Source: Escherichia phage AV126
Sequence record: OR352956.1
Reading direction: 5' to 3' (one strand)
Length of the DNA: 64,000 nt
This document shows, one piece after another, positions 47,447 through 61,199 of the stretch. Each line of letters opens with the position of its first letter. Positions within the stretch are counted from its first letter, which is position 1. The notes beneath the pieces are model-generated. The model saw nothing but the letters and a program-made list of their open reading frames with translations, was not told where the DNA came from and ran no database searches. The position numbers and the translations under genes are program-made.

Positions 47447-47502
47447 TATTTTAACTTTTTTCATTTTTAGAACAAAGGTGTCACTTTGTAGCACAGAAAT
47501 AA

Positions 47503-47870: not shown

Positions 47871-47914
47871 AATTTATGCAGGTGGGAATGAGAAGAGTTC
47901 TCATGTGGAAATGC

Positions 47915-47993
47915 AAATGATAATGATTCGCATTTAAGTTTATAAACGAGATTGATTCTTATTCAATAAGGTAAATGATAATCATTCTCATTT
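47915..47993. promoter_or_regulatory. two Fur-box-like motifs
   Basis: AAATGATAATGATTCGCATTT (47915-47935) and AAATGATAATCATTCTCATTT (47973-47993) vs consensus GATAATGATAATCATTATC. Confidence 0.4.
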
Positions 47994-48251
47994 AGAGAAT
48001 GACGCGCAGGGGCGGTGTTTGTCTCGCGCTCCCGTGTCCCCTCGCCATGTAATAAGAATAACAGATCCAACCAGGAAAGCAAGCGATTATTTTATCTTTA
48101 CATTTCTTTACAAATATATAGCGCCCAGCCTACCGGCGATCAACCTTCCAACCAGCGCCCCTGGTATGTTAGCCCCGCCTTTACGCCGTGGGGTGGCGCT
48201 TCCTCTTCTGTATGTAAAACAGTATAAGCCCGATCCCTGGGCTTGTCAAGA

Positions 48252-48518
48252 TTATTTTTTGTTTTCTTGCCAGGATAGGACACCTAACCAAAAATGCATA
48301 TCGCCCCGCGCCGCTGGCGGGATCTTGCTTTCCCCGCCGCCACTGCAAGCCCATAAATAACCATCAGCAAACGGATCAAAATGTTCTATCTCTTCCACTT
48401 TATGATCGCCCAGGTTGAGAACGGTTTCAACCTTTAAGCCCGTTGCGCTTGCTACCTGGTGCACCGTGCCGCCTTGCCAGCCCAATGAGTGCATAAGGTG
48501 TAATGTAGTATTTGTCAT
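48252..48518 (-). CDS. hypothetical protein (uncertain)
   Basis: 88-aa ORF in GC-rich non-coding-looking stretch; weak RBS. Confidence 0.25.
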   Translation of the reverse strand: MTNTTLHLMHSLGWQGGTVHQVASATGLKVETVLNLGDHKVEEIEHFDPFADGYLWACSGGGESKIPPAARGDMHFWLGVLSWQENKK

Positions 48519-48626
48519 GGTATCGCCCTTTCTTTGATGTGCGCCCTGGTTGGCGCGGTAGAAAGATAATAGCCCTTTTCTTTATATATAGCAAGCAAAA
48601 AGAAAATAAAAAAGATTGAAAAATGG

Positions 48627-48683
48627 TTGACGTTAACCAGGCGGCGGCGTAGTATTCATCTTATAGGGCGGCAATGGTGCCGC
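48627..48683 (+). promoter_or_regulatory. promoter-hairpin cassette 1
   Basis: TTGACG, 17 nt, TAGTAT, then GGCGGCA-atgg-TGCCGC. Confidence 0.6.
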
Positions 48684-48704
48684 TCACTATTTGGAGTTAA
48701 GATC

Positions 48705-48902
48705 ATGGCAACATTGCACATTGTGGCGAAAGCTGGACAAATCAACGTAGTGGTAAACGGTTTTACTGAGTTCAGTCACCCCCAGGATGATCATGAAACG
48801 GTTTTATCTTTCATTGATTCCCTGTTAGAAATGGGAGTCATTACAGAAGACCAGCACGCTACAAAATGCAAGCGCGTTAATCAAATTGCAGGAATAGAAT
48901 AA
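48705..48902 (+). CDS. hypothetical small protein
   Basis: 65 aa from ATG after RBS GGAG; track ORF begins at the TTG of the -35 box. Confidence 0.55.
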   Translation: MATLHIVAKAGQINVVVNGFTEFSHPQDDHETVLSFIDSLLEMGVITEDQHATKCKRVNQIAGIE

Positions 48903-48908
48903 AAACTA

Positions 48909-48968
48909 TTGACAACAAACAACAACCTGATAAGATGTATCACATAGGGCGGGAAGTGGTTTCCCGCT
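48909..48968 (+). promoter_or_regulatory. promoter-hairpin cassette 2
   Basis: TTGACA, 16 nt, TAAGAT, then GGCGGGAA-gtggt-TTCCCGC. Confidence 0.65.
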
Positions 48969-48992
48969 CGTAACAGAAGAGAGATTATCATC

Positions 48993-49265
48993 ATGGCATC
49001 ATATAGCGCAACAATGATCGTAGCTGGCACAACTGGTAAACCTATGAGCGGTGGCGGATCTTTCGCTAATATCAATATTGACGGGCGTTTATCCCTGGAC
49101 GCAGCGATCGCTATTGCACGGGAAACATTTAAGAAAGAATGTAATTTCAACAAGCAAGATTATCTCGGTTTCGCTATTGAAAAAACCGCGCGCTTTGTTG
49201 ATTATAAAAGCCCGAAAATGGTTGATACTACACTAAAAGCGCAAGATGTAGCGTTTTTGCTTTAA
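48993..49265 (+). CDS. hypothetical small protein
   Basis: 90 aa; RBS AGAAGAGAG. Confidence 0.55.
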   Translation: MASYSATMIVAGTTGKPMSGGGSFANINIDGRLSLDAAIAIARETFKKECNFNKQDYLGFAIEKTARFVDYKSPKMVDTTLKAQDVAFLL

Positions 49266-49268
49266 GGC

Positions 49269-49323
49269 TTGACATTAACGAATAATTTGTTAATATGTTA
49301 CATAAAGCGGGAATAGTTCCCGC
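49269..49323 (+). promoter_or_regulatory. promoter-hairpin cassette 3
   Basis: TTGACA, 16 nt, TAATAT, then GCGGGAA-tag-TTCCCGC. Confidence 0.65.
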
Positions 49324-49341
49324 TATTTGTAAGGTGGTAGA

Positions 49342-49599
49342 ATGTTTTACATCAAATTAAAAGGTCACGTGATCGCGTTCAAAGATAACGCTTTTTACAG
49401 ATTAGCAAAATATGCGTTAATACATCCCCACTATGTTTATATAAGGGGGCGTGATGAAATAAATATCTTTGATCAAACAACATGCGAGAACATCGAGATC
49501 CGCAAGGTTGGCGTACGTGATTATCGTACATCTTTCTACCCTTGCAAGGATTCAGCAAGTCTTTTTAAAGTATGCCAATTGTTGAAAAAAGGTGGTTAA
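49342..49599 (+). CDS. hypothetical small protein
   Basis: 85 aa; RBS AAGGTGG. Confidence 0.55.
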   Translation: MFYIKLKGHVIAFKDNAFYRLAKYALIHPHYVYIRGRDEINIFDQTTCENIEIRKVGVRDYRTSFYPCKDSASLFKVCQLLKKGG

Positions 49600-49600
49600 T

Positions 49601-50158
49601 ATGGGCCGCGAATATGTGATCCAGTCTTGGGTAAAACATGAAGCAGATGATCCGCGCATCATTCCCGATCATCTTATCGATGAATCCACGGGATATAGCG
49701 GTGAGCAAATAGGTAACAGATTAGCACGTAGTAACGGCAACGTAAAAGCGCGTTATGTGCGCCCTGGCTGGCTGGCAAATGGTAACGCTGATTTATCCAG
49801 TGCGGAAGATGCAAGCGACGGCGCGAAAGATAATCCTTTGTACAAAATTGATCCGGCTTTTCGTGTCCTGGATGAATACCCCAGCAAGATAGCGGCGCTT
49901 GATGAAGCATTGGAAAGTAAGCGCATCACCTGGACCGCTTACAACATGGCAAAAAACGTACTTGATGGTAAATTGATTCAAGCTGAAAGAAAATTAGCCA
50001 AAATTGCAGCCATAGCCCAGGAGGAAGACGAGGAGACAACGGAAGAGGAAGAGTACGAAGAGATCCCGCCGTTGTTGTGTATTGATGCTTTTCCTGATTA
50101 TCAGCCGACAGAGGAAGAAAAAAGGATCGCACTAGAAAACTTTGAAAATAGTCTTTGA
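49601..50158 (+). CDS. hypothetical protein with acidic C-terminal region
   Basis: Start re-set to MGREYVIQ after RBS AAAGGTGG; EEDEETTEEEEYEE. Confidence 0.5.
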   Translation: MGREYVIQSWVKHEADDPRIIPDHLIDESTGYSGEQIGNRLARSNGNVKARYVRPGWLANGNADLSSAEDASDGAKDNPLYKIDPAFRVLDEYPSKIAALDEALESKRITWTAYNMAKNVLDGKLIQAERKLAKIAAIAQEEDEETTEEEEYEEIPPLLCIDAFPDYQPTEEEKRIALENFENSL

Positions 50159-50211
50159 CATATCGCCGCCACTGGCATAATATTTACCACGTAGGGCGGC
50201 AATGGTGCCGC
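50155..50211 (+). promoter_or_regulatory. promoter-hairpin cassette 4
   Basis: TTGACA, 17 nt, TAATAT, then GGCGGCA-atgg-TGCCGC. Confidence 0.65.
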
Positions 50212-50240
50212 TCATAGTGAAATTATACAGGAGGTTTACA

Positions 50241-50336
50241 ATGATTAATAAAGAAAATAGCTTGACGGTTGGAACGATTAACGCTATCATTTTCGCCGTT
50301 CCATTTTGGGTTGTAGTAGCGGCTATTATTTTCTAA
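50241..50336 (+). CDS. small hydrophobic peptide
   Basis: 31-aa ORF not in track; RBS AGGAGG. Confidence 0.4.
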   Translation: MINKENSLTVGTINAIIFAVPFWVVVAAIIF

Positions 50337-50345
50337 AAAATATTC

Positions 50346-50406
50346 TTGACAACGTTTTTTAATCTGATAAGATGTATCACATAGGGCGGCGGAATACTTC
50401 CCCGCC
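50346..50406 (+). promoter_or_regulatory. promoter-hairpin cassette 5
   Basis: TTGACA, 16 nt, TAAGAT, then GGCGGCGGAA-tac-TTCCCCGCC (imperfect). Confidence 0.6.
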
Positions 50407-50427
50407 AAAACAAAAAAGGGTAACACA

Positions 50428-50790
50428 ATGAGCAAGCAAATCAATACTATCATGTTTAATCTGGTATCTTTCCGCGATGATATGAAAAATTTACCACGTG
50501 AAACGGTTGATATTCATGTTTCAGCTTATCGCGCCCTTATTGATATGTTACCGCTAAAACGTGATCAACATGCCGCTAATATGATGCTTAATGCTATGCT
50601 TAAAAAGATGATTCAAACGGATCTTACTCTGGCATATGAGTATCAAGGGCGCTTATATGCTACTTACAACAAAGCGGTACCTGGTCTGGGAAGTACCGAA
50701 GAGTTGCACGGCTTAAACCTGGATCAGAACACTTGGGATAGTATGCGCCGCGTTATGGTATGGGCCGAAAGCGGTAAAATTTACGAATAA
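50428..50790 (+). CDS. hypothetical protein
   Basis: 120-aa ORF. Confidence 0.55.
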   Translation: MSKQINTIMFNLVSFRDDMKNLPRETVDIHVSAYRALIDMLPLKRDQHAANMMLNAMLKKMIQTDLTLAYEYQGRLYATYNKAVPGLGSTEELHGLNLDQNTWDSMRRVMVWAESGKIYE

Positions 50791-50796
50791 AAACGG

Positions 50797-50856
50797 TTGA
50801 CACTGTTTAAAATGCTGGTATAGTTTATCACATAGGGCGGGAAGTGGTTTCCCGCC
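50797..50856 (+). promoter_or_regulatory. promoter-hairpin cassette 6
   Basis: TTGACA, 16 nt, TATAGT, then GGCGGGAA-gtggt-TTCCCGCC. Confidence 0.65.
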
Positions 50857-50878
50857 AACAATGAAAAAGGTTATCATC

Positions 50879-51244
50879 ATGGCTATTAATATTAATGTTT
50901 CCGCTTATGCTACCCTGGCTAACACGGCTAAAATTGAATTATCCAGCATTGAGGCGGTGCATATTAGCGCCCGTCGCTGGTTTCAACAGTCCTACGGTAA
51001 CACGTATTTTTCTTTAATGGTTGACGTTGAGATCGGCGGTAAACTGATCGAGGTGGTTAACGTTCCGTTTCAATATGGCTATGGTGATCATTTTGATACC
51101 GTCGCCCTGGAAGAATTTAGCAAGGTTATCAACCTTGAGGGCAAGGAATTTTCACGCGGCGCGTATCTTTCCCGTTTTTGCCGTGACAATGGGATCACTG
51201 TATACAGTCATGCAAGCGATGTTAAACGTAAAAAAGATCTATAA
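50879..51244 (+). CDS. hypothetical protein
   Basis: Start re-set to MAININVSAY by analogy with sibling cassettes. Confidence 0.5.
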   Translation: MAININVSAYATLANTAKIELSSIEAVHISARRWFQQSYGNTYFSLMVDVEIGGKLIEVVNVPFQYGYGDHFDTVALEEFSKVINLEGKEFSRGAYLSRFCRDNGITVYSHASDVKRKKDL

Positions 51245-51250
51245 AAAGCA

Positions 51251-51309
51251 TTGACAGCACGAATAAAAAGAGTAAACTGTATTACATAGAGAGCGGGAAC
51301 ACTTCCCGC
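51251..51309 (+). promoter_or_regulatory. promoter-hairpin cassette 7
   Basis: TTGACA, 16 nt, TAAACT, then GCGGGAA-cac-TTCCCGC. Confidence 0.65.
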
Positions 51310-51333
51310 CTCACTGAAAAAGAGAGAAAAATC

Positions 51334-51573
51334 ATGGCTAAATCTAAAATGTACAACGGTCACAAAAACAAAACTCATTGGAATGTAAGCCTGTGGATTA
51401 ATAACGATGAGGGATTGTATCGGTTTGCATTGGGATTGATCAATGAGTGCGGTAATAAAGATCAGGCGGCTGATTTAATGTGCTACCGTTTGAAACAGGA
51501 TGGAATCACTACAACGCCAGACGGCTTTAAGTATAGTAAAACTGCAATCCGCGCCGCTATGGTTGGAATGTAA
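51334..51573 (+). CDS. hypothetical small protein
   Basis: 79 aa; RBS AAAGAGAGA. Confidence 0.55.
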   Translation: MAKSKMYNGHKNKTHWNVSLWINNDEGLYRFALGLINECGNKDQAADLMCYRLKQDGITTTPDGFKYSKTAIRAAMVGM

Positions 51574-51582
51574 TAAAAACAG

Positions 51583-51642
51583 TTGACAACGTTTAAAATT
51601 AGTGTAAGATGTATCACATAGGGCGGGAAGTGGTTTCCCGCC
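51583..51642 (+). promoter_or_regulatory. promoter-hairpin cassette 8
   Basis: TTGACA, 16 nt, TAAGAT, then GGCGGGAA-gtggt-TTCCCGCC. Confidence 0.65.
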
Positions 51643-51664
51643 AACAACAGAGAGATTAAAGATT

Positions 51665-51892
51665 ATGGCTATCAATATTGTTCGTGTATCCGGCACCGTT
51701 GGCAGTTCCCAGGTTGTAGCAGTTGTAACAAACAAAAAGATTAATGATGTATGTGAGATCTTGAATAAGTGGGCTATTGCTAATTTTGGGGAATATGCAA
51801 GCGTTGAGTACATCGAATCCTACCAGGTGCCGACCATCAGCCTAACCGATCTCAACGTTGATCGCCTGTTATGCCTGGATGAATTAATCTGA
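51665..51892 (+). CDS. hypothetical small protein
   Basis: 75 aa; N-terminus MAINIV resembles 50879 gene. Confidence 0.55.
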   Translation: MAINIVRVSGTVGSSQVVAVVTNKKINDVCEILNKWAIANFGEYASVEYIESYQVPTISLTDLNVDRLLCLDELI

Positions 51893-51901
51893 AAAAGATT
51901 G

Positions 51902-51957
51902 TTGACACGGGAAAGAAAAAGAGTAAACTGTATTACGTAGGGCGGCAATAGTGCCGC
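51902..51957 (+). promoter_or_regulatory. promoter-hairpin cassette 9
   Basis: TTGACA, 16 nt, TAAACT, then GGCGGCA-ata-GTGCCGC. Confidence 0.65.
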
Positions 51958-51982
51958 TCACAACAGAAGAGAGATTATCACG

Positions 51983-52198
51983 ATGGCTAATATCCGTACA
52001 CTGTTAAAAAATGCAAGTCAAGTTTTATTTTCAGATGACGAGTATTTCAACAAAGACATTACAGGCGTGAAAAATTTAAAAGACGTGAAGGATGTTATCG
52101 GTATCCGTGGATCTTTACGTAAAGGTGATATATACGGTAACAAGGTGCAATATAAACTGTCAAAAGATTATGATTTTACTTTGACAATTATTTCATAA
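51983..52198 (+). CDS. hypothetical small protein
   Basis: 71-aa ORF. Confidence 0.55.
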   Translation: MANIRTLLKNASQVLFSDDEYFNKDITGVKNLKDVKDVIGIRGSLRKGDIYGNKVQYKLSKDYDFTLTIIS

Positions 52199-52204
52199 AA
52201 CCGC

Positions 52205-52266
52205 TTGCAATCTTAATAAAATAAAGTAAACTGTATTACATCAAGGCGGCGGAATGGTCCACCGCC
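52205..52266 (+). promoter_or_regulatory. promoter-hairpin cassette 10
   Basis: TTGCAA, 16 nt, TAAACT, then GGCGGCGGA-atgg-TCCACCGCC. Confidence 0.6.
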
Positions 52267-52290
52267 TAACAAAGAGAAGAGGAAAATATT

Positions 52291-52458
52291 ATGATCACTT
52301 TCGCTACCCGTGAAGCCGCTCGCAACGTTGCCCGTAAAGTTAACGCCGCCAACCTGGGCGCTACACTTAAAGCCCCGGTAAAAGATGCATCAGGCGCGTG
52401 GATCTTCCCTGGTCTGCGTCACGCTGATAAGCTAGGCACTTTAAGCCTTAAAAAATAA
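52291..52458 (+). CDS. hypothetical small basic protein
   Basis: 55-aa ORF not in track; RBS AGAGGA. Confidence 0.45.
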   Translation: MITFATREAARNVARKVNAANLGATLKAPVKDASGAWIFPGLRHADKLGTLSLKK

Positions 52459-52461
52459 TCG

Positions 52462-52500
52462 TTGACTTTTCGTTATAGCGCCTTATAATGGGCGCTATAG
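52462..52500 (+). promoter_or_regulatory. promoter with palindrome over the -10 box
   Basis: TTGACT, 16 nt, TATAAT lying in the loop of ATAGCGCC-N8-GGCGCTAT. Confidence 0.55.
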
Positions 52501-52532
52501 AGAAGAGAAACCACTACTAACAAGGAAACATC

Positions 52533-52754
52533 ATGATCACTTTCGCTATTGTCGCCGTTGTCGCTGGTCAGGTTTACGTAAACGAGACATTTACTACAGA
52601 AGACAAGGCCGCAGGAGATATAACCGCCGTTTACAACGAGTGCAAGGCAGTAGAAAGGATGTTAGCGCCTTGTATGCTAATGAGTGAACGCCAGGACGGG
52701 ATAACAGTATTTACTAACATTGAAACAGGGTACCAAATGGTAGTAACAAAATAA
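52533..52754 (+). CDS. hypothetical small protein
   Basis: 73-aa ORF. Confidence 0.55.
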   Translation: MITFAIVAVVAGQVYVNETFTTEDKAAGDITAVYNECKAVERMLAPCMLMSERQDGITVFTNIETGYQMVVTK

Positions 52755-52757
52755 AGC

Positions 52758-52814
52758 TTGACACGGATTTAATTTTCAGTAAACTGTTACACGTAGGGCG
52801 GGAATAGTTCCCGC
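52758..52814 (+). promoter_or_regulatory. promoter-hairpin cassette 11
   Basis: TTGACA, 16 nt, TAAACT, then GCGGGAA-tag-TTCCCGC. Confidence 0.65.
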
Positions 52815-52833
52815 TCAAAAAGAGAGAAAGACT

Positions 52834-53187
52834 ATGAAAGCACAAAATGCAATTAAAGAGTACATCCTTGCCGCTATCGATTTTAATGATTACGGTATTA
52901 CAACCGAAAAAGAGAAGATCGCGGAATTGATGCGCCGTTTTAATTCCGAGTACTGGTACCCTGATAACCAATCACGTTTTAATTATAGTATTGTTAAAGC
53001 ACTTGCATCATGGTTACAAGGTTTGCCATCAGATATCAATATCGCTTTCGAATATTGGGAAATTGATCGCCTGTTAACATCCTGGGGATACATTAAAGAG
53101 AATAGCCGCGATGATAAAATCCAACGAGAAAGGGAAAATTATTGGCTTTATATTGCAGGCGTGATCCTTGCTTGCTCTTATGAATGA
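52834..53187 (+). CDS. hypothetical protein
   Basis: 117-aa ORF. Confidence 0.55.
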   Translation: MKAQNAIKEYILAAIDFNDYGITTEKEKIAELMRRFNSEYWYPDNQSRFNYSIVKALASWLQGLPSDINIAFEYWEIDRLLTSWGYIKENSRDDKIQRERENYWLYIAGVILACSYE

Positions 53188-53193
53188 TAAACC

Positions 53194-53246
53194 TTGACAA
53201 TTTTACAAAACAGTTTAAATTAACAATATAGCGGCAATGGTGCCGC
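53194..53246 (+). promoter_or_regulatory. promoter-hairpin cassette 12
   Basis: TTGACA, 16 nt, TAAATT, then GCGGCA-atgg-TGCCGC. Confidence 0.6.
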
Positions 53247-53266
53247 TCATATGAAGAGGAAACAAA

Positions 53267-53413
53267 ATGAATACATCTAATCGCGCAGAAAAAATTCAAT
53301 CTTCCAAGATCCGCAAGGCCTGGAACGAGGAAGTGATCCGCAAAGGCGACAAGCGTAATAAAACAAAGCGCGGGAAGAGTGACAAATATAATTGGATGGA
53401 TTTAGAGGATTAA
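53267..53413 (+). CDS. small basic protein
   Basis: 48-aa Lys/Arg-rich ORF not in track; RBS GAGGAAAC. Confidence 0.4.
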   Translation: MNTSNRAEKIQSSKIRKAWNEEVIRKGDKRNKTKRGKSDKYNWMDLED

Positions 53414-53419
53414 CATAAC

Positions 53420-53447
53420 AAGGGCGCACCAAGCGCCCTTTCTTTTT
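53420..53447 (+). terminator. rho-independent terminator
   Basis: AAGGGCGC-acca-AGCGCCCTT then TCTTTTT. Confidence 0.7.
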
Positions 53448-53468
53448 ACATGTAGAGGATAAACAAAA

Positions 53469-53654
53469 ATGACTTTAAACGAGCTTAAAACAGCGTACAG
53501 CGCAACATTAAAAATAGCCGTGCGTTACCGTGACGAATACGGTTTTATTGCGCAGGGCGTGATCCTGGGCTTTTCTGACGATGGTTTGATCTATGTTGAT
53601 GCACATTATAACAAGGTTAAACCGGAAAACGTTATTAGCATAAAATATCTTTAA
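53469..53654 (+). CDS. hypothetical small protein
   Basis: 61 aa; RBS GAGGA. Confidence 0.5.
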   Translation: MTLNELKTAYSATLKIAVRYRDEYGFIAQGVILGFSDDGLIYVDAHYNKVKPENVISIKYL

Positions 53655-53660
53655 AAACGG

Positions 53661-53720
53661 TTGACACCATAACCGGACCTGTTAAACTGTATTACATCAG
53701 GCGGGGAATAGTTCCCCACC
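53661..53720 (+). promoter_or_regulatory. promoter-hairpin cassette 13
   Basis: TTGACA, 16 nt, TAAACT, then GGCGGGGAA-tag-TTCCCCACC. Confidence 0.6.
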
Positions 53721-53739
53721 ATACAAAAAGGTAAATATT

Positions 53740-53946
53740 ATGATCACCGCAAAACAAGAAAAAATCATTATCGACGTTGCAGCCGTTGCCGCTATCGCTA
53801 TTATTGGATCTTATTATGATACCCGTTTCCCGTCGGCTATGCATGAGGTCGCCGCCGTTGCATCAGTTGGCGTACTGTTTTACGTTGGTAAACGCTATTT
53901 ATCACCAATGATTAACAAGCTGACACCGTGGAAAAATAAAGGTTGA
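53740..53946 (+). CDS. small membrane protein
   Basis: 68 aa, hydrophobic core AAVAAIAIIG. Confidence 0.5.
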   Translation: MITAKQEKIIIDVAAVAAIAIIGSYYDTRFPSAMHEVAAVASVGVLFYVGKRYLSPMINKLTPWKNKG

Positions 53947-53997
53947 TCCTGTTTTACATTGTGTTATAGTTATCGTGTAGGGCGGCAATGGTGCCGC
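53943..53997 (+). promoter_or_regulatory. promoter-hairpin cassette 14
   Basis: TTGATC, 16 nt, TATAGT, then GGCGGCA-atgg-TGCCGC. Confidence 0.6.
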
Positions 53998-54017
53998 GCC
54001 CCTTTGAGGATGCAATC

Positions 54018-54302
54018 ATGAGTAAAGCTAACACCGTGCTAATGTTTTCCCTGATTAATGATCTCGCTTACTTGTCCAACATGACGCAGGAGGGTAACAC
54101 ATTAACGGCAACATTCACCAATAAGCTTGACCGAGTGATCATCGTCTCACTGAAAACAGTTAGTAAAGGCTTTTACTCGTTAGCTTATCATTGTATCACT
54201 GACACCGACGAGACAAGCCAGGACTATAGCGCCCCTTTCCCTGAATCAATGGCACGGGAGATCATCGCCGCCGTTGTAAATGATGGTTTGTTTACTGCAT
54301 AA
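54018..54302 (+). CDS. hypothetical small protein
   Basis: Start re-set to MSKANTVL; track start is the ATG inside the hairpin loop. Confidence 0.5.
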   Translation: MSKANTVLMFSLINDLAYLSNMTQEGNTLTATFTNKLDRVIIVSLKTVSKGFYSLAYHCITDTDETSQDYSAPFPESMAREIIAAVVNDGLFTA

Positions 54303-54319
54303 ATAATTTAGAAAAAGGC

Positions 54320-54376
54320 TTGCAATCATTTTGAGATAGTGTATATTTAATTCATAGGGCGGCGGGAATAGTTCCC
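54320..54376 (+). promoter_or_regulatory. promoter-hairpin cassette 15
   Basis: TTGCAA, 16 nt, TATATT, then GGGCGGCGGGAA-tag-TTCCC. Confidence 0.55.
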
Positions 54377-54399
54377 AAAGCAAACGAGAGGATTACACG

Positions 54400-54519
54400 A
54401 TGAGCAAGTACACAGTAGAATACACGGTAGAGAATCCGGCAGTATCCGAAGGTAAAAAGATGACATTTGCCATCAGTATAATCGCTTTCGTTGTCACTAT
54501 CTTATCAATCATCTTATAA
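54400..54519 (+). CDS. small membrane peptide
   Basis: 39-aa ORF not in track; RBS GAGAGGA; C-terminal hydrophobic helix. Confidence 0.4.
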   Translation: MSKYTVEYTVENPAVSEGKKMTFAISIIAFVVTILSIIL

Positions 54520-54529
54520 GGTACACACC

Positions 54530-54691
54530 ATGAAAATAGCAGACATTATCAAAGAGATCGCCCTTGCCACTGGTATCGAGATCGAGGAAGTGATCGCGCT
54601 CAATCTTACAGAAAACGATTTGCGCAACTATGAAGCGGAAAGCGTGAAAGCAAGTGGCGCGGTCCTGGCATATAATCCGGCTAACAAATAG
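54530..54691 (+). CDS. hypothetical small protein
   Basis: Start re-set to MKIADIIKE; 53 aa. Confidence 0.4.
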   Translation: MKIADIIKEIALATGIEIEEVIALNLTENDLRNYEAESVKASGAVLAYNPANK

Positions 54692-54692
54692 T

Positions 54693-54750
54693 TTGACAAG
54701 CTGAATCAACCTGATAAGATGTATGACATAGGGGCGACAAGCGCCCCGCC
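54693..54750 (+). promoter_or_regulatory. promoter-hairpin cassette 16
   Basis: TTGACA, 16 nt, TAAGAT, then GGGGCG-acaa-GCGCCCC. Confidence 0.65.
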
Positions 54751-54771
54751 TAACAGAAGAGAGAAAAAATC

Positions 54772-55050
54772 ATGACCATCACCAAATTATCTACCGAAGA
54801 GATCACCAACATTCTGACTACTAATCTGCAAGATTGGAAGCGTGAAGCCGATTTGCAAGCGGTTTGCAAGCTGAATGTAGAGTTAACAGAAAGCGACATT
54901 GACGCCATTATTAACCCTGATTTCTATGATGCTATTCATGATGATTCTATTATCCTTGAAACACTATTAGATAATACTTGGATCAATCCCGATTTGGCAG
55001 CTTATGACCGTAGCGCCTTTATCACTATCCACAATATCTATAACCGTTAA
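54772..55050 (+). CDS. hypothetical small protein
   Basis: 92-aa ORF. Confidence 0.55.
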   Translation: MTITKLSTEEITNILTTNLQDWKREADLQAVCKLNVELTESDIDAIINPDFYDAIHDDSIILETLLDNTWINPDLAAYDRSAFITIHNIYNR

Positions 55051-55060
55051 GGGGCGTAGC

Positions 55061-55171
55061 ATGAATCCGAGAGATATGCAATCATGGAAAGGGTGCGACG
55101 ATCTAAGCGCCTTGCGCAATAAGTCAAGCCGTAACCTTAGACGGTTGGAAGCAAAGAAAAAGAAAAAATAG
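55061..55171 (+). CDS. small basic peptide (uncertain)
   Basis: 36-aa ORF not in track; Lys-rich tail. Confidence 0.3.
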   Translation: MNPRDMQSWKGCDDLSALRNKSSRNLRRLEAKKKKK

Positions 55172-55172
55172 T

Positions 55173-55228
55173 TTGACAAGTCGGCTTAGTCTGGTAATAT
55201 GTATCTTGTAGGGCGGCAATGGTGCCGC
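55173..55228 (+). promoter_or_regulatory. promoter-hairpin cassette 17
   Basis: TTGACA, 16 nt, TAATAT, then GGCGGCA-atgg-TGCCGC. Confidence 0.65.
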
Positions 55229-55249
55229 TCACAAGAAGAGAGAAAAATC

Positions 55250-55534
55250 ATGGAAATCACAAAAAGCCTAACTAATTATGCAGCACGTCGCGGATTATGT
55301 TTAACCGTTGAAAACTTAGGGAAAGAAGACTTTTTGTGTTTTTGGGAGCTTGAAAATGATTGCGAGTGGATGTTTTCCTATTCTATCTGCGAAGATCAAA
55401 ACGGTTGTTTGTTAACCTGGCGCGGTAATATCTATTTACCGGAAGAAATTAAAGAAGAGTTACCAGGTACAATCATGACAGAGAGACAGCTTAAGGAAGT
55501 GATCAATTTTGTAGGGCAAAACATTAAAAAATAA
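55250..55534 (+). CDS. hypothetical small protein
   Basis: Start re-set to MEITKSL; 94 aa, Cys/Trp-rich. Confidence 0.5.
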   Translation: MEITKSLTNYAARRGLCLTVENLGKEDFLCFWELENDCEWMFSYSICEDQNGCLLTWRGNIYLPEEIKEELPGTIMTERQLKEVINFVGQNIKK

Positions 55535-55535
55535 T

Positions 55536-55597
55536 TTGACAGCACGCAAACAACGTAGTAAAGTTTACCACATAGGGCGGCGGAATGGTCCACCGCT
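55536..55597 (+). promoter_or_regulatory. promoter-hairpin cassette 18
   Basis: TTGACA, 17 nt, TAAAGT, then GGCGGCGGA-atgg-TCCACCGC. Confidence 0.6.
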
Positions 55598-55619
55598 CAC
55601 AACAGAAGAGAAACAAATC

Positions 55620-55790
55620 ATGATCCCGACTATGTTTTATGTATCGCGCAAAGGTCACAATATTTTTTGGTCTGAAGATTTAAATGAAGCCATGACGTTT
55701 GCCCGTGATCGTGTTGCTATCGGTGGCGTTAACATCACCGTAACCGATGAAAATGGCATTGAATACTATAACGGCGACGATGAAGAGTAA
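55620..55790 (+). CDS. hypothetical small protein
   Basis: Start re-set to MIPTMFYVSRKG; 56 aa. Confidence 0.5.
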   Translation: MIPTMFYVSRKGHNIFWSEDLNEAMTFARDRVAIGGVNITVTDENGIEYYNGDDEE

Positions 55791-55856
55791 TTAATAAGGC
55801 GGGGAATACTTCCCGCCACGCAGTGAATTTTCCGTTTGGGAAGTAAAAAATAAATC

Positions 55857-55918
55857 TTGACGATAATTTGTTATCTGATAGAATGTATTTCGTAGGGCGG
55901 GGCAATAAGGCAACGCCC
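55857..55918 (+). promoter_or_regulatory. promoter-hairpin cassette 19
   Basis: TTGACG, 16 nt, TAGAAT, then imperfect GC hairpin GGGCGGGGCAATAAGGCAACGCCC. Confidence 0.5.
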
Positions 55919-55936
55919 ATTAATGAGGGTAGAATC

Positions 55937-56041
55937 ATGTTAGAGAAAATTTTCACGGTTGCAGTAGTTGGCCTGGCGTTATCGGTTGGAGTGGTTGCAA
56001 CTATGGCTAATATGATCCTATCTTCCCACGGTATCGGCTAA
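55937..56041 (+). CDS. small membrane peptide
   Basis: 34-aa ORF not in track; RBS GAGGG; hydrophobic. Confidence 0.4.
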   Translation: MLEKIFTVAVVGLALSVGVVATMANMILSSHGIG

Positions 56042-56051
56042 GGTGAAACAA

Positions 56052-56267
56052 ATGATCACGAATAAGACAGGTAAAACGGAATTTTTACGCGGCTTGCAAG
56101 TTGGTAAACCTGAGATCTGGCATTGTACTAAATCCGCGCATAATGAAATGAAAGATTTTACCGCTACTTTACAACGTGTTAAAATATCTATCACACAGAA
56201 AAAAGCCTTGTTAGTAGTAGAAAACGAGATCCCGCAAACTATTATTATTGTCGAGCGTACAGCATGA
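56052..56267 (+). CDS. hypothetical small protein
   Basis: Start re-set to ATG after RBS AAGGTG. Confidence 0.5.
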   Translation: MITNKTGKTEFLRGLQVGKPEIWHCTKSAHNEMKDFTATLQRVKISITQKKALLVVENEIPQTIIIVERTA

Positions 56268-56650
56268 AAACAGAAATCATTATTGAAATCATCAACGGTT
56301 ATAAAGAAGCCTTTATTTTTGCTGAATCAGCAAGGGATCATGAAGGTAATTTTATTGAAAACTTAGACGATTATGATTTTTCTCCTAGCGCGGACGAACG
56401 GATCGCCCAGGATGTAACAGCCTTTATTAATGCTAATCTTGCCGCTATCTCTGAGGCAATGAGCGACGGCGCAACAGCCAACCAGATCGGGAATGATTTA
56501 CATTTTACCCGTAACGGTCACGGCGTAGGCTTTTGGGATCGCCCTGAAATATACACCACTAACACGGCGAACCGCCTAACCAATGCAGCTAAGTTTATGC
56601 CGAACGTGTCGGCTTACATTGGTGAAGATAATTTGATTTATATTGAATAA
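56264..56650 (+). CDS. hypothetical protein
   Basis: 128 aa; ATGA overlap with upstream gene. Confidence 0.55.
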   Translation: MKTEIIIEIINGYKEAFIFAESARDHEGNFIENLDDYDFSPSADERIAQDVTAFINANLAAISEAMSDGATANQIGNDLHFTRNGHGVGFWDRPEIYTTNTANRLTNAAKFMPNVSAYIGEDNLIYIE

Positions 56651-56656
56651 AAAGTA

Positions 56657-56713
56657 TTGACACAGATCGCCAGTGTGCTAATATTTACCACGTAGGGCGG
56701 CAATGGTGCCGCC
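56657..56713 (+). promoter_or_regulatory. promoter-hairpin cassette 20
   Basis: TTGACA, 16 nt, TAATAT, then GGCGGCA-atgg-TGCCGCC. Confidence 0.65.
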
Positions 56714-56731
56714 GATAATGAGGAAAGTAAA

Positions 56732-57031
56732 ATGGAAACTATCGCTATTGTTACCGTAGAAAAACTGGTTGTTGGTGATGTATTCGCGTTAATGGTGCCT
56801 AACAGCAGCAAGCTGGGCGCTTATGAAGTAATGGATCATAAAAATGAATCATTTGGCGACGGTTGCACAATGGCGGTAAAATCTTTAAAGGATGGAATCA
56901 TCCGCCAGGCTAACTGGCACAAAGGGAATCAAGTCGGTTTAATATCAGCTAATTTCTTGCCAGAAGAGCAAACGTTAGACCAACTATCAGGCGGTAAGAC
57001 GTTAGCCGAACTACTGGAAACAGCGATCTAA
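56732..57031 (+). CDS. hypothetical protein
   Basis: 99-aa ORF; RBS GAGGAAAG. Confidence 0.55.
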   Translation: METIAIVTVEKLVVGDVFALMVPNSSKLGAYEVMDHKNESFGDGCTMAVKSLKDGIIRQANWHKGNQVGLISANFLPEEQTLDQLSGGKTLAELLETAI

Positions 57032-57075
57032 TCAACAAAGGGGCGGCAACGCCCCACATCAGAAAGGAAAAGATT

Positions 57076-57312
57076 ATGAGTATTGCAACAGTATTAAACG
57101 CCGTTAAAACCGCTGAATCATCCGGCTTGCATGTTGAGCTTATAGATCAACCAGGTGGCGATCTCCTTGTCCAGGTTTACCCGCCGAAAGTAGGGGATGA
57201 TTATTATTGGGCTTATTCTGATACGTTCGAACAAGTAGACACGAAAGCGATCACGGCTTTTATTTTAAAAGCTATTGAAGAAAATAACTTTCATCATAAC
57301 ATCAATCAATAA
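57076..57312 (+). CDS. hypothetical small protein
   Basis: 78 aa; preceded by promoterless hairpin GGGGCG-gcaa-CGCCCC. Confidence 0.55.
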   Translation: MSIATVLNAVKTAESSGLHVELIDQPGGDLLVQVYPPKVGDDYYWAYSDTFEQVDTKAITAFILKAIEENNFHHNINQ

Positions 57313-57366
57313 ACCATAAGCGGGGCGGTAACGCCCCATTAAACGCAATAGGAAGAGGATAGACGC

Positions 57367-57657
57367 ATGAAAAAGATGATCGCAGTAGTTGCCCTGGTTG
57401 TTGGTATTAACGCGCCTGTACTGGCTAATGAGTTGCCAGAATCCATCACGCTAACCGATATCAACGCAATAAACCGGATCGGCGTTAATTATCGCCTATG
57501 CCTTGCCGCTAAAACTTTCCAGGACGGCACGACAGAATACCACGGATTCGAGGGTATCCGCTGCGGTGAGCTTGCACGCGACCTTAAGGAAGATCCAGAC
57601 CTTGAGGCCATACCGATGACCGTAAACGGTAAAGCTTACGTAAACCGCCAACAATGA
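57367..57657 (+). CDS. secreted small protein
   Basis: 96 aa; signal peptide MKKMIAVVALVVGINAPVLA. Confidence 0.55.
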   Translation: MKKMIAVVALVVGINAPVLANELPESITLTDINAINRIGVNYRLCLAAKTFQDGTTEYHGFEGIRCGELARDLKEDPDLEAIPMTVNGKAYVNRQQ

Positions 57658-57788
57658 GAAAGATAATCATCACAATGGGGATCGTAGTAGCAACGCTGGC
57701 GCTTATCCCCTTCATGGTTGAACATGTGCTGATCAGTGTTGTCCTTGTAGTCAGTGACCTATTGGAAACGGTTGGCAACTGGTTTTAA
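57654..57788 (+). CDS. small membrane peptide
   Basis: 44-aa ORF not in track; ATGA overlap; hydrophobic. Confidence 0.4.
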   Translation: MRKIIITMGIVVATLALIPFMVEHVLISVVLVVSDLLETVGNWF

Positions 57789-57797
57789 GATAAATAA

Positions 57798-57825
57798 ACA
57801 GGGCTTGTTTTTGTCCTGTTTTTTG
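57798..57825 (+). terminator. rho-independent terminator
   Basis: ACAGGGC-ttgtttttgt-CCTGT then TTTTTTG. Confidence 0.65.
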
Positions 57826-57963
57826 TTATACTTATTGAACGGGCGGCACTTGGGAGCAGGTGAAGATAATCACCGGAAGATCCCGCTATATATCGATAGC
57901 TAATACCTATCAAACAACAAAACATCAAAGAGATAAACTATCAAATCTTTACAATCCTACCTA

Positions 57964-58024
57964 TTGACACCGGATCACGCTTACATTATTATTTATCACG
58001 TAGGGCGAGCAATACAGCAAGCCC
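57964..58024 (+). promoter_or_regulatory. promoter-hairpin cassette 21
   Basis: TTGACA, 17 nt, TATTAT, then GGGCGAGCAA-tac-AGCAAGCCC. Confidence 0.55.
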
Positions 58025-58041
58025 ACAAAGAGGAAAAGAAG

Positions 58042-58410
58042 ATGAGCAAATCAGCAATTAAAGCAGTTGAAAAAGCGCAAGAAGTGATCGCAACGTCAAC
58101 CACTGGCGCAAAGGTTAATCTCGTTGGTTATCTGACAGATGAAGCTATCCGTAAAAATTGGCGTAATGCTGATTTACTGGCTTGCTTATTGATTAATAGT
58201 GTCGCTAATGCTTTCCAGTGTGAAACAGCCGAGAGCCTGGAGGAAAACTTGTTTGATAATATGGATCAAGCCATTGAAACCTATATACAATCAAACCTGG
58301 ATAGCTGGAACAGTAAGACATGGCCTGACAGCTTACGCGATACAACTGATCAACTGATCCGCCTTGCCCTGATGGTTGAACGCGATAACGTTCACAACCG
58401 CACAAAGTAA
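58042..58410 (+). CDS. hypothetical protein
   Basis: Start re-set to MSKSAIKAV after RBS AGAGGAAAAG. Confidence 0.55.
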   Translation: MSKSAIKAVEKAQEVIATSTTGAKVNLVGYLTDEAIRKNWRNADLLACLLINSVANAFQCETAESLEENLFDNMDQAIETYIQSNLDSWNSKTWPDSLRDTTDQLIRLALMVERDNVHNRTK

Positions 58411-58468
58411 GATTATACAAGGGGCGCACTAAGCGCCCTTTAACGTAAAGAAATGTAAATAATGCGCT

Positions 58469-58505
58469 ATCCCCTATTGACAGGGGATCGGCGTTATATT
58501 ATATT
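58469..58505 (+). promoter_or_regulatory. promoter with palindrome over the -35 box
   Basis: ATCCCCT-attgac-AGGGGAT enclosing TTGACA; 17 nt; TATATT; no downstream GC hairpin. Confidence 0.5.
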
Positions 58506-58550
58506 TAACTCACTGGCAGCAAACAACGAAACGAAACAAAGGACAACACC

Positions 58551-58970
58551 ATGAACATTAAATCAAATAATCCAGCTTACTCCTTCGATAACGCTTTTTG
58601 TCACGGTAGCGCCGCCAAAGGCTTCGAAATCGATGGTAAATTGGTTATCGTGAACGTTGACGGGGAAGAGGTTGCAGTGTATCCGGTAAACGATGTTAAA
58701 AGCCGTTTACAATGCCGCATGGATGTTACCGCATATCAGCTTGATCCGGTCCGTGTAGTTGCCCTGGTATTAGAGGAAGAGATCAAAGCAATGCATCACA
58801 GTAATAAGTTTATTGGTGACGCGCAGGATAATATGAACGTTTGCCGCCATAAAGTTAATGAAGCATTGAAAGAATATGGTTTTAAGGATCTGATGATCAA
58901 ACGTGATGAAAAATTCCGCTTTCGTAATGACCTGGCAAACCGGATCTACTCAATCTATGAAGCGTTATAA
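58551..58970 (+). CDS. hypothetical protein
   Basis: 139-aa ORF. Confidence 0.55.
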   Translation: MNIKSNNPAYSFDNAFCHGSAAKGFEIDGKLVIVNVDGEEVAVYPVNDVKSRLQCRMDVTAYQLDPVRVVALVLEEEIKAMHHSNKFIGDAQDNMNVCRHKVNEALKEYGFKDLMIKRDEKFRFRNDLANRIYSIYEAL

Positions 58971-58984
58971 TCGACAACAAAACA

Positions 58985-59012
58985 AGGGGCGCACCAAGCG
59001 CCCTTTCTTTTT
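58985..59012 (+). terminator. rho-independent terminator closing the island
   Basis: AAGGGGCGC-acca-AGCGCCCTT then TCTTTTTG. Confidence 0.75.
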
Positions 59013-59217
59013 GCCTGAACAATGTTGATAGCTTTCGCCTATGAAAAACCGACACAGAACAAAACTGAATAAATCGCGGTATCGAGCTAATCAACCATCA
59101 AACGAATAACCATACATCCCAGGGCAACAGGCTGTTAGAGAGCTATTTAGAGCGGTTAAAATCGATCTACAACCAACAACAAACCATCAAAAACACCCTT
59201 TTACCTCCTTTCTAGTG

Positions 59218-59237
59218 CAATGATAACCATTATCATC
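59218..59237. promoter_or_regulatory. Fur-box-like motif
   Basis: CAATGATAACCATTATCATC; 14 of 15 core positions match ATGATAATCATTATC. Confidence 0.4.
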
Positions 59238-59989
59238 TACCCATGATTATCTATGCAATATAAGCGCATAATTATAATGTTGATAATAGTTCGCAACAAC
59301 TAACCAACAAACAACATAAAACAATAAGCAAACTAATCATAATCAAAGGAATAATAGCAAGATGATTGATAACGACAAACAATCAAACCATGATGAATAC
59401 TAAGCAAGATAACGATAACACGACAAAACAACCAACTAACGAACAATAACAAACGAAACCATTAAAAGATCAACTATTAGCAAAATAGTGTCTATTGCCA
59501 TAATAGTGACTGAATGAAATCATTACAAAACGAATCATTCCAAGGATCATCATTAGCACGCTACGCCGGACACGTAGCGAGCTAATAATAAGCCAACTAC
59601 ACCCCAACAATCATAACCATCGGTGACGGTTATTTCTTGTTACTGCGTAGCTTGCAATAATTGCAAGCGTAATGACGCTTACACTTATTGCGCTGGCTTA
59701 TTATTAGCATTATATGTAATTACCAAGATCATAACATTAGCGCAATAACAATAATCATTACAATAATTACATAAGGAAACAATTAGCATAGCAATAATTA
59801 TGGGGGCAATGGGAGGATGATTATCATCATTCCGATACATTGCACACTATGCACATAATAAGATAAAAAGCAATAATCTTGGGGGCGAAATGTTACCGCC
59901 ACAGGCGGGAATGTTGAGCATCTTCTCTTAAACGTAAATAAAATCAGAAAATTCTTGATTTATTTTAGTTTTTATGTTAATAAACGTTT

Positions 59990-60010
59990 AAATAATAATC
60001 ATTCTCATAT
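59990..60010. promoter_or_regulatory. Fur-box-like motif (weaker)
   Basis: AAATAATAATCATTCTCATAT shares ATAATCATTCTCAT with 47973 site. Confidence 0.3.
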
Positions 60011-60167
60011 AAATAATAGTCTGCTTGTCATGAGCGGGATTAGTTGACATTGTTCCGTCATATGATGAAGTTGCCAAGCCATTGATAAATAAGTGTTTGT
60101 GTGATTTATAATCAAGTGGCCCACCTTGTCGCTACGTTGGCATGAGCCTTGCATAAGTCATTGAATA

Positions 60168-60190
60168 CGAATGATAATTATTCTCATTCG
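60168..60190. promoter_or_regulatory. Fur-box-like motif
   Basis: GAATGATAATTATTCTCATTCGC. Confidence 0.35.
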
Positions 60191-60529
60191 CATGATATTT
60201 GGGAATTGTCGCTGCGTGGACCTGACGGCCCGAAAATTCGCGTTAAGCACTTCTTACGTATGCGCCATGATTTTTGCCATATCATATTGATTCTATTAGA
60301 TATTCTTGCCATGATTGCCATGAAACAGGGTGTCCCGAAATAATCTCTCCCCGTAGATATTTTGGGTTACTTTTTATACAAGAGTGGGGTGTCAAAAATA
60401 ATCGGTATATATGGGATAATTGATAGGAATCCCCTATGATAATTCGATTGTAATTCCCTAAGATTGATCGTATGATGTTGGTGATTGATGATTGCCATGA
60501 AAGATGGCTAACGATGAGAGGAGATTATC

Positions 60530-60898
60530 ATGCAAGAGAGTAAAAATATTCCGTTGAGCAGTGCAGCATTGATTCAATTCTACAAAGCATGGATGGCTGA
60601 TCACTACAGCATGGATCGCACGGAGAATGGACTGTGTTTATGTATTCATCATTTTGTGCGATCTCATCTTATGAAAGATGTGGAGAATCCCCGATGGTAT
60701 GCCGACATAATAGATAGCTTGTTGTTTGAGATGCGTGCTCAGTTCAAAGACGCTGGCATTGATACGTGCGCACCCTTCAACACTGGATATGCGGATTACT
60801 TGATTGAAGTGGAAGATAAAATGTGTCACCTGAATCCACTTCGCATTCAGTGGGTGAAAGATCGCATTGAAGATGCAAATAATGCTTGCATTGAATAA
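60530..60898 (+). CDS. hypothetical protein
   Basis: 122 aa; RBS GAGAGGAG. Confidence 0.55.
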   Translation: MQESKNIPLSSAALIQFYKAWMADHYSMDRTENGLCLCIHHFVRSHLMKDVENPRWYADIIDSLLFEMRAQFKDAGIDTCAPFNTGYADYLIEVEDKMCHLNPLRIQWVKDRIEDANNACIE

Positions 60899-60968
60899 AA
60901 ATGTCTGTATGATGTTTGTATAAGATATGCAATACCGCGCATAACAAACAGCTAATGAGGAGATTGGA

Positions 60969-61199
60969 ATGCATAGCATGAAACGCATGAAAATTCGTAT
61001 TGAGAATGATGGTGGTTATAAAGGATTGGCACATGCAAAATTTCCACTTGTGCTGGAAGCTACGGTGGAATACAGTGGGCTTGCTCATGTGCGATTCTCG
61101 AAGATGATGGAAGTGCAGGAATGGTTTTGGGACGAGATAGATGCACGAGAAGGAGAAGATTATGTTTTCTTTCCTCACGAATATGAAATTATCTATTAA
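60969..61199 (+). CDS. hypothetical small protein
   Basis: 76 aa; RBS AGGAGA. Confidence 0.5.
   Translation: MHSMKRMKIRIENDGGYKGLAHAKFPLVLEATVEYSGLAHVRFSKMMEVQEWFWDEIDAREGEDYVFFPHEYEIIY

Follow-up and report, generated by a model that had tools for sequence, protein, structure and literature searches.

Bacteriophages of the subfamily Stephanstirmvirinae have genomes that are said, in a 2025 paper, to end in direct terminal repeats. The repeat of phage Schickermooser is 328 bp long (Korf et al., PMC6563267), that of BME3 was placed at 342 bp by PhageTerm (PMC12210895), and PMC12695924 is a further literature source on the direct terminal repeat. Phage phi92, which belongs to the sister genus Justusliebigvirus (FR775895.2), is annotated with a left repeat at 1–343 (DTR-L) and a right repeat at 148270–148612 (DTR-R), each of 343 bp, and has the same architecture. 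Terminal-repeat genome ends are already known for the Phapecoctavirus group. Here we analysed a 1.5-kb stretch of Escherichia phage AV126 (OR352956.1), contained in a 64,000-nt segment that we refer to throughout as the window. An original prediction, made from the sequence alone, had flagged this stretch as non-coding and had offered a replication origin, a packaging or genome-end structure, or an A/C-rich non-coding RNA as candidate explanations. Our analysis indicates that it is very probably the site at which the two physical ends of a Phapecoctavirus genome, itself linear and terminally redundant, have been joined through collapse or circularisation in assembly. Besides the terminal repeat, it holds a five-helix element under selection for base pairing and a cluster of palindromes that resemble the Escherichia coli Fur box.

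When compared with Schickermooser and phi92, the repeat of AV126 is homologous in sequence and has homologous boundaries, such that nothing essential about it is different. The order of parts is likewise alike, with the last gene followed by a terminator, ∼1 kb of non-coding DNA, the repeat, a leader of 0.3–0.6 kb and the first gene. As far as we found, the literature and records annotate only the repeat; the motif at its boundaries, the Fur-like boxes and the structured element are all missing from them. Our literature search likewise found neither a description of the region nor any account of Fur boxes in phages of this kind, and no transcriptome for the subfamily.

Genome ends and the direct terminal repeat

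The interval 59000–60550 matches 75 phage records, 55 of which cover at least 80 % of it at 92–98 % identity, and nearly all of which are Phapecoctavirus; the source phage is accordingly placed in this genus, as a phAPEC8-like myovirus with a genome of ∼150 kb. On the left, the flagged stretch is bounded by a 139-aa gene (58551–58970) and its terminator, and on the right by the ATG at position 60530. The linear Schickermooser record stops 1223 nt past the homologue of the former gene and starts 613 nt before the homologue of the latter, and its first 329 nt are the same as its last 329 nt, both mapping to 59917–60245 of the window. This 329-bp unit is 97–99 % identical to those with which the Schickermooser, Mt1B1_P17, BI-EHEC and WPEC records begin and end. 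Moreover, at least ten further records, which come from several laboratories, begin or end exactly on it (Mt1B1_P17, BI-EHEC, WPEC1, 2, 4 and 6, Ro121lw and three NWU phages), and those deposited with both ends carry it twice. The gene order around the repeat agrees with that of Schickermooser and phi92, with the last right-end gene on one side of it and the first left-end gene on the other. As the termini and the repeat of the group map within it, the flagged 1.5-kb region is the assembly view of two genome ends, and the original suggestion of a packaging or genome-end structure is the one that was borne out.

The boundaries of the repeat in phi92 and Schickermooser were determined independently and are homologous, and all four read GTTR/AGC (the slash marking the cut): the left boundary is ...TGTTG/AGC... 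and the right boundary is ...CGCGTTA/AGCAC.... A motif common to both boundaries fits a single nuclease specificity acting twice. Short exact terminal repeats generally arise from concatemers that contain one repeat per unit, which are cut at the repeat boundaries, with subsequent duplication of the repeat, as in the T7-type model. By the same scheme, the AV126 repeat would be present once per genome unit in replicative concatemers, the packaging nuclease would cut at two GTTR/AGC sites 329 bp apart, and duplication of the repeat would leave a copy at both ends of each virion DNA. Two points weigh against this account of the ends: the termini of AV126 are taken from homologues that are 97–99 % identical rather than from reads, and the cutting and duplication steps are drawn by analogy, with the nuclease sites predicted. 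As far as the literature and records show, the shared cut-site motif is new.

A GC hairpin (59896–59908), preceded by GGGGGCGAA, sits 8 nt to the left of the left cut site. Its position is kept, whilst its sequence differs in each lineage, with arms of CCGCC/GGCGG here, ATCGC/GCGAT in phAPEC8 and GCCCAC/GTGGGC in Klebsiella-type phages. This hairpin may be part of the recognition site for the packaging nuclease.

The region is a composite of at least four parts, rather than a single element. From left to right, the terminator of the right-end gene is followed by 910 nt of unique right-end non-coding DNA (comprising an A/C-rich, G-poor stretch, one Fur-like box and the five-helix element on the minus strand), the 329-bp repeat and a 284-nt left-end leader (Table 1).

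Table 1. Features identified at the joined genome ends of phage AV126 (window coordinates; putative assignments are worded as such)
Feature	Position	Strand	Remarks
Intrinsic terminator of the last right-end gene	58984–59006	+	GGGGCGC-accaa-GCGCCC hairpin followed by a T-run
TTGATAG-N7-CTATGA box, copy 1	59025–59044	+	Copy 2 at 60420–60439
A/C-rich, G-poor right-end unique non-coding stretch	59050–59560	+	Minus strand G/U-rich and C-poor
Fur-box-like palindrome AATGATAACCATTATCATC	59216–59237		15/19 to the E. coli Fur consensus; homologous position kept in 5/5 aligned lineages
Five-helix structured element, 169 nt	59546–59714	-	Includes both hairpins of the original prediction and 15-nt perfect arms (59581–59595/59694–59708)
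Variable spacer	59715–59916		ATTAGC repeats, a weaker Fur-like site and the GC hairpin 59896–59908
Weaker Fur-like site	59813–59831		In the variable spacer
Direct terminal repeat, 329 bp	59917–60245		Single copy (ends collapsed in assembly); both boundaries GTTR/AGC
Candidate sigma-70 promoter TTGATT-17-TAATAA	59955–59983	+	Directed towards the left-end genes; by eye in the alignment, putative
Fur-box-like palindrome AATAATAATCATTCTCAT	59988–60009		Inside the repeat, just downstream of the candidate promoter
Fur-box-like palindrome GAATGATAATTATTCTCATTC	60167–60191		Inside the repeat; kept in all lineages
Left-end leader, from the repeat to the first left-end gene (ATG 60530)	60246–60529	+	24-nt direct repeats at 60415–60464; box copy 2 at 60420–60439

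Between the terminator and the ATG at 60530 we found no credible ORF, as originally proposed; the longest are of 64–65 aa and have TTG starts. A Pfam search with the small ORFs of the region gave no match above the cut-off and, as they lack this support and as indels between genera are not multiples of three, we rejected them as genes. A 9-codon minus-strand ORF near 59205 with a strong Shine–Dalgarno sequence was also rejected, as it is not kept in relatives, and a tRNA scan found nothing. In phAPEC8, ESCO13 and TSP7_1, zero coding sequences (CDS) are annotated across the homologous stretch. Several other genomes have four to eight small 'hypothetical proteins' annotated over it, for example OR786310.1 (ETEC-TG, eight CDS) and PV659873.1 (WPEC1), and such CDS in the terminal region are probably over-annotation. 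Among the Phapecoctavirus genomes in the databases, many are circularly permuted or have superfluous small genes annotated here; recognizing the collapsed ends gives them a natural start coordinate, position 59917 of the window, and removes spurious genes.

Among the other parts, the terminator at the left border is annotated as such in phAPEC8 and Schickermooser, and its stem and T-run are kept across genera. The TTGATAG-N7-CTATGA box has exactly two exact copies in the window (0.13 expected at ≤ 1 mismatch), which share the same orientation, bracket the entire terminal non-coding region and are kept in phi92-like and Klebsiella relatives. Large indels separate the lineages in the spacer, and ATTAGC occurs seven times in the region against 1.0 expected. 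Finally, phages phiWec179, phiWec188 and PsgM04F are ∼95 % identical to the window over 57800–59720, and only ∼65 % identical from there onwards through the repeat and the left-end genes; this alignment puts a sharp mosaic breakpoint at ∼59720, and suggests that the right-end module is swapped as one unit.

Fur-like palindromes in and beside the repeat

The GATAA and ATAAT units to which the original prediction had drawn attention are real, and are 5 to 25 times as frequent as in the remainder of the window; observed against expected counts of such hexamer-type words are 14 against 2.0 for AATAAT, 12 against 1.8 for AATCAT and 7 against 0.26 for ATAATTA. A scan of 59007–60529 with the E. coli Fur consensus returned six loci matching at 14 or more of 19 positions, with 0.23 expected and none of 1000 dinucleotide shuffles equalling this outcome, and two of the six lie inside the repeat. 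The same kind of enrichment, with matches of up to 17/19, is seen at aligned positions in phi92, cardinal, KP13-26 and phiWec179. The first box within the repeat is invariant between the window and phiWec179, phiWec188 and PsgM04F, and its phi92 homologue scores 17/19, as does the phiWec179 version of the second box, GATAATGATAATTATTCTC. Indeed, the boxes at 59991 and 60170 form conservation islands in a repeat that is otherwise only ∼65–70 % identical between lineages. The phage boxes can be summarized by a consensus of their own, AATGAKAAT-N-ATTMTCATT, which occurs eight times in the window against 0.22 expected. At the level of sequence, these data show that Fur-consensus-like palindromes are strongly over-represented and positionally conserved and, as far as the literature and records show, the conserved cluster of Fur-like operators in and beside this repeat appears to be new.

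A second non-coding region of the window, at 47447–48620 in the early gene block, has similar features. It is long, and contains 75-nt direct repeats at 47665 and 47803 that share 81 % identity. These are followed by four Fur-like palindromes set at a regular interval of exactly 29 bp (47887, 47916, 47945 and 47974, spanning 47887–47992) and, beyond these, by a GC-rich stretch at 48000–48400. This region is conserved in 146 phage records, including those of Justusliebigvirus, Salmonella and Serratia phages.

The candidate promoter within the repeat has a -35 element (TTGATT) and a 17-nt spacing that are kept in four lineages, with a -10 element that varies (TAATAA, TATAGA, TATGCG and TAAGAA). 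It falls under the 9-of-12 threshold of our promoter scan, which gives no strong site there. If it is active, the repeat would carry an early promoter reading into the left-end genes. In phAPEC8, the 'promoters determined with PHIRE' (280–299 and 1695–1714 of the phAPEC8 stretch) prove to be copies of GTAGGGCGGCAATGGTGCCGC, which forms a GC hairpin and lies a short way 5' of ribosome-binding sites; these look more like RNA stem-loops, serving as processing or stability elements, than like promoters.

Binding of the operator-like palindromes of the repeat by host Fur is a prediction that we regard as evenly balanced. Several observations weigh against it: the phage boxes consistently prefer ATTCTCATT over the ATTATCATT of the Fur consensus, the best match to that consensus is 15/19 in this region and 16/19 in the second non-coding region, and consensus matching is known to be a weak predictor of Fur binding (PMC2189734). 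A serious contender, if one that we place somewhat short of an even chance, is that the palindromes are operators for a phage-encoded repressor unrelated to host Fur, for example an early-to-middle switch protein. Such a protein would account for the separate consensus, with its consistent preference for GAGAA/TTCTC half-sites, as well as for the way in which the eight copies cluster in the early gene block, within its two large stretches of non-coding DNA, including the four spaced by exactly 29 bp. However, orthologous sites in relatives reach 16–17/19 to the E. coli Fur consensus, and no candidate repressor was identified. GAGAAT variants, furthermore, do occur in genuine Fur sites, such as that of the aerobactin promoter.

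A minus-strand element under selection for base pairing

Two structures singled out by the original prediction belong to a larger element of 169 nt. Both exist, although each is slightly displaced from where it had been placed: the perfect palindrome (CTTGCAATAATTGCAAG) lies at 59651–59667 rather than 59648–59664, and the CGCTACG-ccggaca-CGTAGCG hairpin at 59559–59579. The element is kept in Phapecoctavirus, Justusliebigvirus, Klebsiella-infecting Stephanstirmvirinae and several metagenomic contigs. We performed a covariation analysis on an alignment of 12 distinct sequences, using a minus-strand consensus of five helices and 53 pairs. As read on the minus strand, 632 of 632 pair cells are canonical, and 15 of the 53 pairs have changed on both sides in a compensatory manner. 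None of 500 column shuffles reached any of the five pairing measures and, as a control, sliding the partners by 1–3 columns reduced pairing to 23–52 %. In some lineages, including metagenomic variants, entire hairpins have been swapped with pairing left intact (ATAACCATC/GATGGTTAT, ATTACTATT/AATAGTAAT, GGAATAATC/GATTATCC and GTGACTATT/AATAGTCAC).

The two strands are not equivalent in this respect. On the plus strand, the helices hold 61 mismatched cells (A·C or C·A) and zero wobble pairs, such that 90.3 % of cells are paired compared with 100 % on the minus strand; these 61 cells, which fall at 11 pair positions, are without exception G·U on the minus strand. The minimum free energy is likewise lower for the minus strand (-77.8 kcal/mol, z -8.6) than for the plus strand (-57.9 kcal/mol, z -6.4). 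The alignment shows that selection maintains base pairing in the element, and does so for the minus-strand sequence in particular. Mismatches that are one-sided and all of the same polarity would not be tolerated if selection acted on a duplex, a cruciform or a palindrome bound by protein; the element therefore functions as a single strand, that of the minus-strand sequence.

We somewhat favour the prediction that this strand is a structured RNA, transcribed leftwards, which could serve in end processing or packaging, in priming or in regulation. Searches of Rfam (Rfam 15) gave no match at gathering thresholds over the whole window, and none at E ≤ 1 over 47000–61000; as far as the literature and records show, the five-helix element, with its very clean covariation, appears to be previously undescribed. 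We derived a covariance model from the alignment, and it detects one copy in the window. Beyond the subfamily, it gives a tentative full-length minus-strand match of 29 bits in the right-end non-coding DNA of the rV5-like Vequintavirus Pr121LW. The 139-aa last right-end gene has 90–93 % protein identity in rV5-like Vequintavirus, which belongs to a different subfamily, and in Pr121LW its homologue is also the last gene, followed at the record ends by non-coding DNA of more than 2 kb that is without BLAST homology.

A number of observations count against this reading. A minus-strand promoter search upstream of the element in 15 lineages revealed no consistent sigma-70 site, the sole candidate being a TAnAAT-like hexamer that in some lineages lies right next to helix 1, and no intrinsic terminator was found after the element on the minus strand, where the U-run at the bidirectional terminator is missing in phi92. 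The one-sided G·U pattern at 11 pair positions could be partly inflated by the local bias of C over G. Additionally, the invariant palindrome GCTTGCAAT-N-ATTGCAAGC permits a local hairpin that competes with helix 2 and, after realignment with the addition of three metagenomic sequences, RNAalifold picks this local hairpin over helix 2.

A transcript running leftwards from the element would enter DNA of unusual composition. The original prediction described the plus strand of the entire region as dominated by A and C, which is true for ∼59050–59560 only, with 59620–59900 being unskewed and 59880–60529 leaning towards T and G; the A/C run it quoted is off by one base, and actually reads ...ACCAACAAACAAC.... 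Within 59050–59560, A makes up 45 %, C 21–23 % and G 10.5 % of the sequence (C/G = 2.0), and this part includes the most A+C-rich 400-nt stretch of the window (0.675 compared with a mean of 0.511, z about 4.4). Phages phi92, cardinal and KP13-26 share its poverty in G (5–11 % G, with C more than twice G), but not its richness in A and C or its A-rich triplets.

Unstructured RNA that is C-rich and G-poor is an established signature of Rho-dependent termination. It is conceivable, if rather doubtful, that the plus strand of 59050–59560 is a putative Rho-loading (rut-like) zone, a role that would be compatible with our preferred explanation of the region. Acting as a back-up terminator or insulator, it would keep read-through from the right-end genes away from the genome end and, in concatemers, from the early genes of the left end. 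The stretch is untranslated, directly follows an intrinsic terminator and, with C/G = 2.0 and 10.5 % G over 400 nt, has the composition of rut sites (at least 80 nt of untranslated RNA with little structure and a clear excess of C over G). Across genera, moreover, it is this C>G bias and the scarcity of G that are kept. These arguments are of composition only, however, and the same composition equally fits a Rho-resistant RNA from the minus strand, as the low C content downstream of the element would render an untranslated minus-strand transcript a poor substrate for Rho. A Rho-loading zone and a C-poor, Rho-resistant minus-strand transcript continuing from the structured element both fit, and are not mutually exclusive.

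The main alternative to an RNA, which we consider improbable, is that the element acts as folded single-stranded DNA of the minus strand, either as an initiation or priming signal or as an intermediate in end processing or packaging. Orientation-specific signals of this kind are known in plasmids and single-stranded DNA phages, strand-specific pairing is compatible with G·T no less than with G·U, the distance from the element to the terminal repeat at the right end is never more than a few hundred nucleotides, and no clear promoter or terminator delimits a transcript. Conversely, there is no obvious step that would expose the minus strand; we reason that the plus strand would be the one laid bare, whether by 5' resection at the right end or by gaps in the lagging strand there. 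Furthermore, wobble pairs account for ∼10 % of the total and three of them are invariant, which is more typical of RNA helices.

Compared with a minus-strand RNA, the originally suggested A-rich sponge RNA fares poorly. In the form considered here, the plus strand would be transcribed as an unstructured A-rich RNA that titrates an RNA chaperone, through the distal face of Hfq and in the manner of CrcZ. The many AAC/AAN triplets in 59160–59470 and the status of the A/C stretch as an extreme compositional outlier would suit such a role. We nevertheless judge it very unlikely, as the stretch is directly downstream of a strong and conserved plus-strand terminator, no good plus-strand promoter exists in 59007–59300, and the only structure under selection folds on the opposite strand. 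The A-rich (ARN/AANAANAA) motifs present here are, moreover, not kept in phi92-like and Klebsiella homologues, which are A/T-rich and merely G-poor. The near-identity of the A/C stretch in phiWec179, phiWec188 and PsgM04F was rejected as a sign of selection, since the upstream genes are equally ∼95 % identical and the whole forms a mosaic block.

Lastly, a phage replication origin, in which AT-, repeat- and palindrome-rich non-coding DNA binds an initiator, is scarcely credible: whilst the region is long, non-coding, locally low in GC (0.346) and rich in short repeats and inverted repeats, and whilst the terminal non-coding region of T5 has DnaA boxes reminiscent of oriC (bioRxiv 10.1101/866236), it holds one DnaA-like 9-mer (with the window total at chance, 23 against 21.4 expected), no regularly spaced iteron family and no turning point in cumulative GC skew, the minimum of which is near 41 kb at a gene-strand switch, and the mapped termini already account for its non-coding status. 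Tandem Repeats Finder detected no long period in the region, and a periodic CAACAA-block repeat of ∼120–130 nt was rejected as low-complexity similarity, its three units having 55 % column identity.

Significance and comparison with known systems

We tentatively propose, as a possibility rather than an expectation, that the Stephanstirmvirinae, and possibly the rV5-like Vequintavirinae, both carry an undescribed minus-strand RNA of ∼170 nt near the right genome end and recruit host Fur to the terminal repeat and its flanks. If true, the early transcription of a virulent phage, or the processing and packaging of its ends, would be tied to a dedicated RNA and to the iron status of the host. Should Fur bind, the phage would offer a rare example of genome ends or early promoters being coupled to host iron sensing in a virulent phage, in parallel with the array of DnaA boxes proposed for T5. 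These are broad-host-range coliphages used in phage-therapy collections, and the cut-site motif, the five-helix element and the Fur-like operator array offer concrete and testable handles on their packaging signals and early regulation.

The nearest general model for the ends is the T7-type junction, in which a short terminal repeat with flanking pac elements is duplicated during packaging. In T7, and by the scheme proposed here for AV126, concatemers contain one copy per unit of a repeat of a few hundred base pairs and virion DNA contains two. In both, the repeat adjoins conserved non-coding DNA with hairpins on its right-end side, and early promoters, putative in AV126, lie at the left end. 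The two differ in that they have no sequence relationship, AV126 is of a myovirus type using the host RNA polymerase, and the cut-site motif is common to both boundaries, with no T7 RNA polymerase pause signal involved. For the putative minus-strand RNA, the closest parallel is the pRNA of phi29, which is also a structured RNA of ∼170 nt near one end of a linear phage genome. This analogy is one of position only, as the AV126 element has no Rfam match to pRNA, and as terminase and a terminal repeat in one type of phage stand against a terminal protein in another.

The Fur-like boxes can be set beside two systems. As with the E. coli Fur box (GATAATGATAATCATTATC), they are 19-bp, A/T-rich palindromes of GATAAT-type hexamers (14–15/19 here and 16–17/19 in relatives) and, as in E. 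coli Fur promoters, they are clustered, with at least one just downstream of a promoter-like site. These putative sites differ in belonging to a virulent phage, in lying inside a terminal repeat and in their systematic preference for TTCTC half-sites. The second system is the injection stop signal region of T5 with its eight DnaA boxes (Davison, bioRxiv 10.1101/866236), which differs in its 10-kb repeat and two-step injection, and in having DnaA boxes where AV126 has a 329-bp repeat and Fur-like boxes. In both phages, a genome end is occupied by a large untranslated region rich in repeats and palindromes, with a conserved array of sites (putative in AV126) for a host DNA-binding protein, making T5 the closest analogy for the Fur-like boxes described here.

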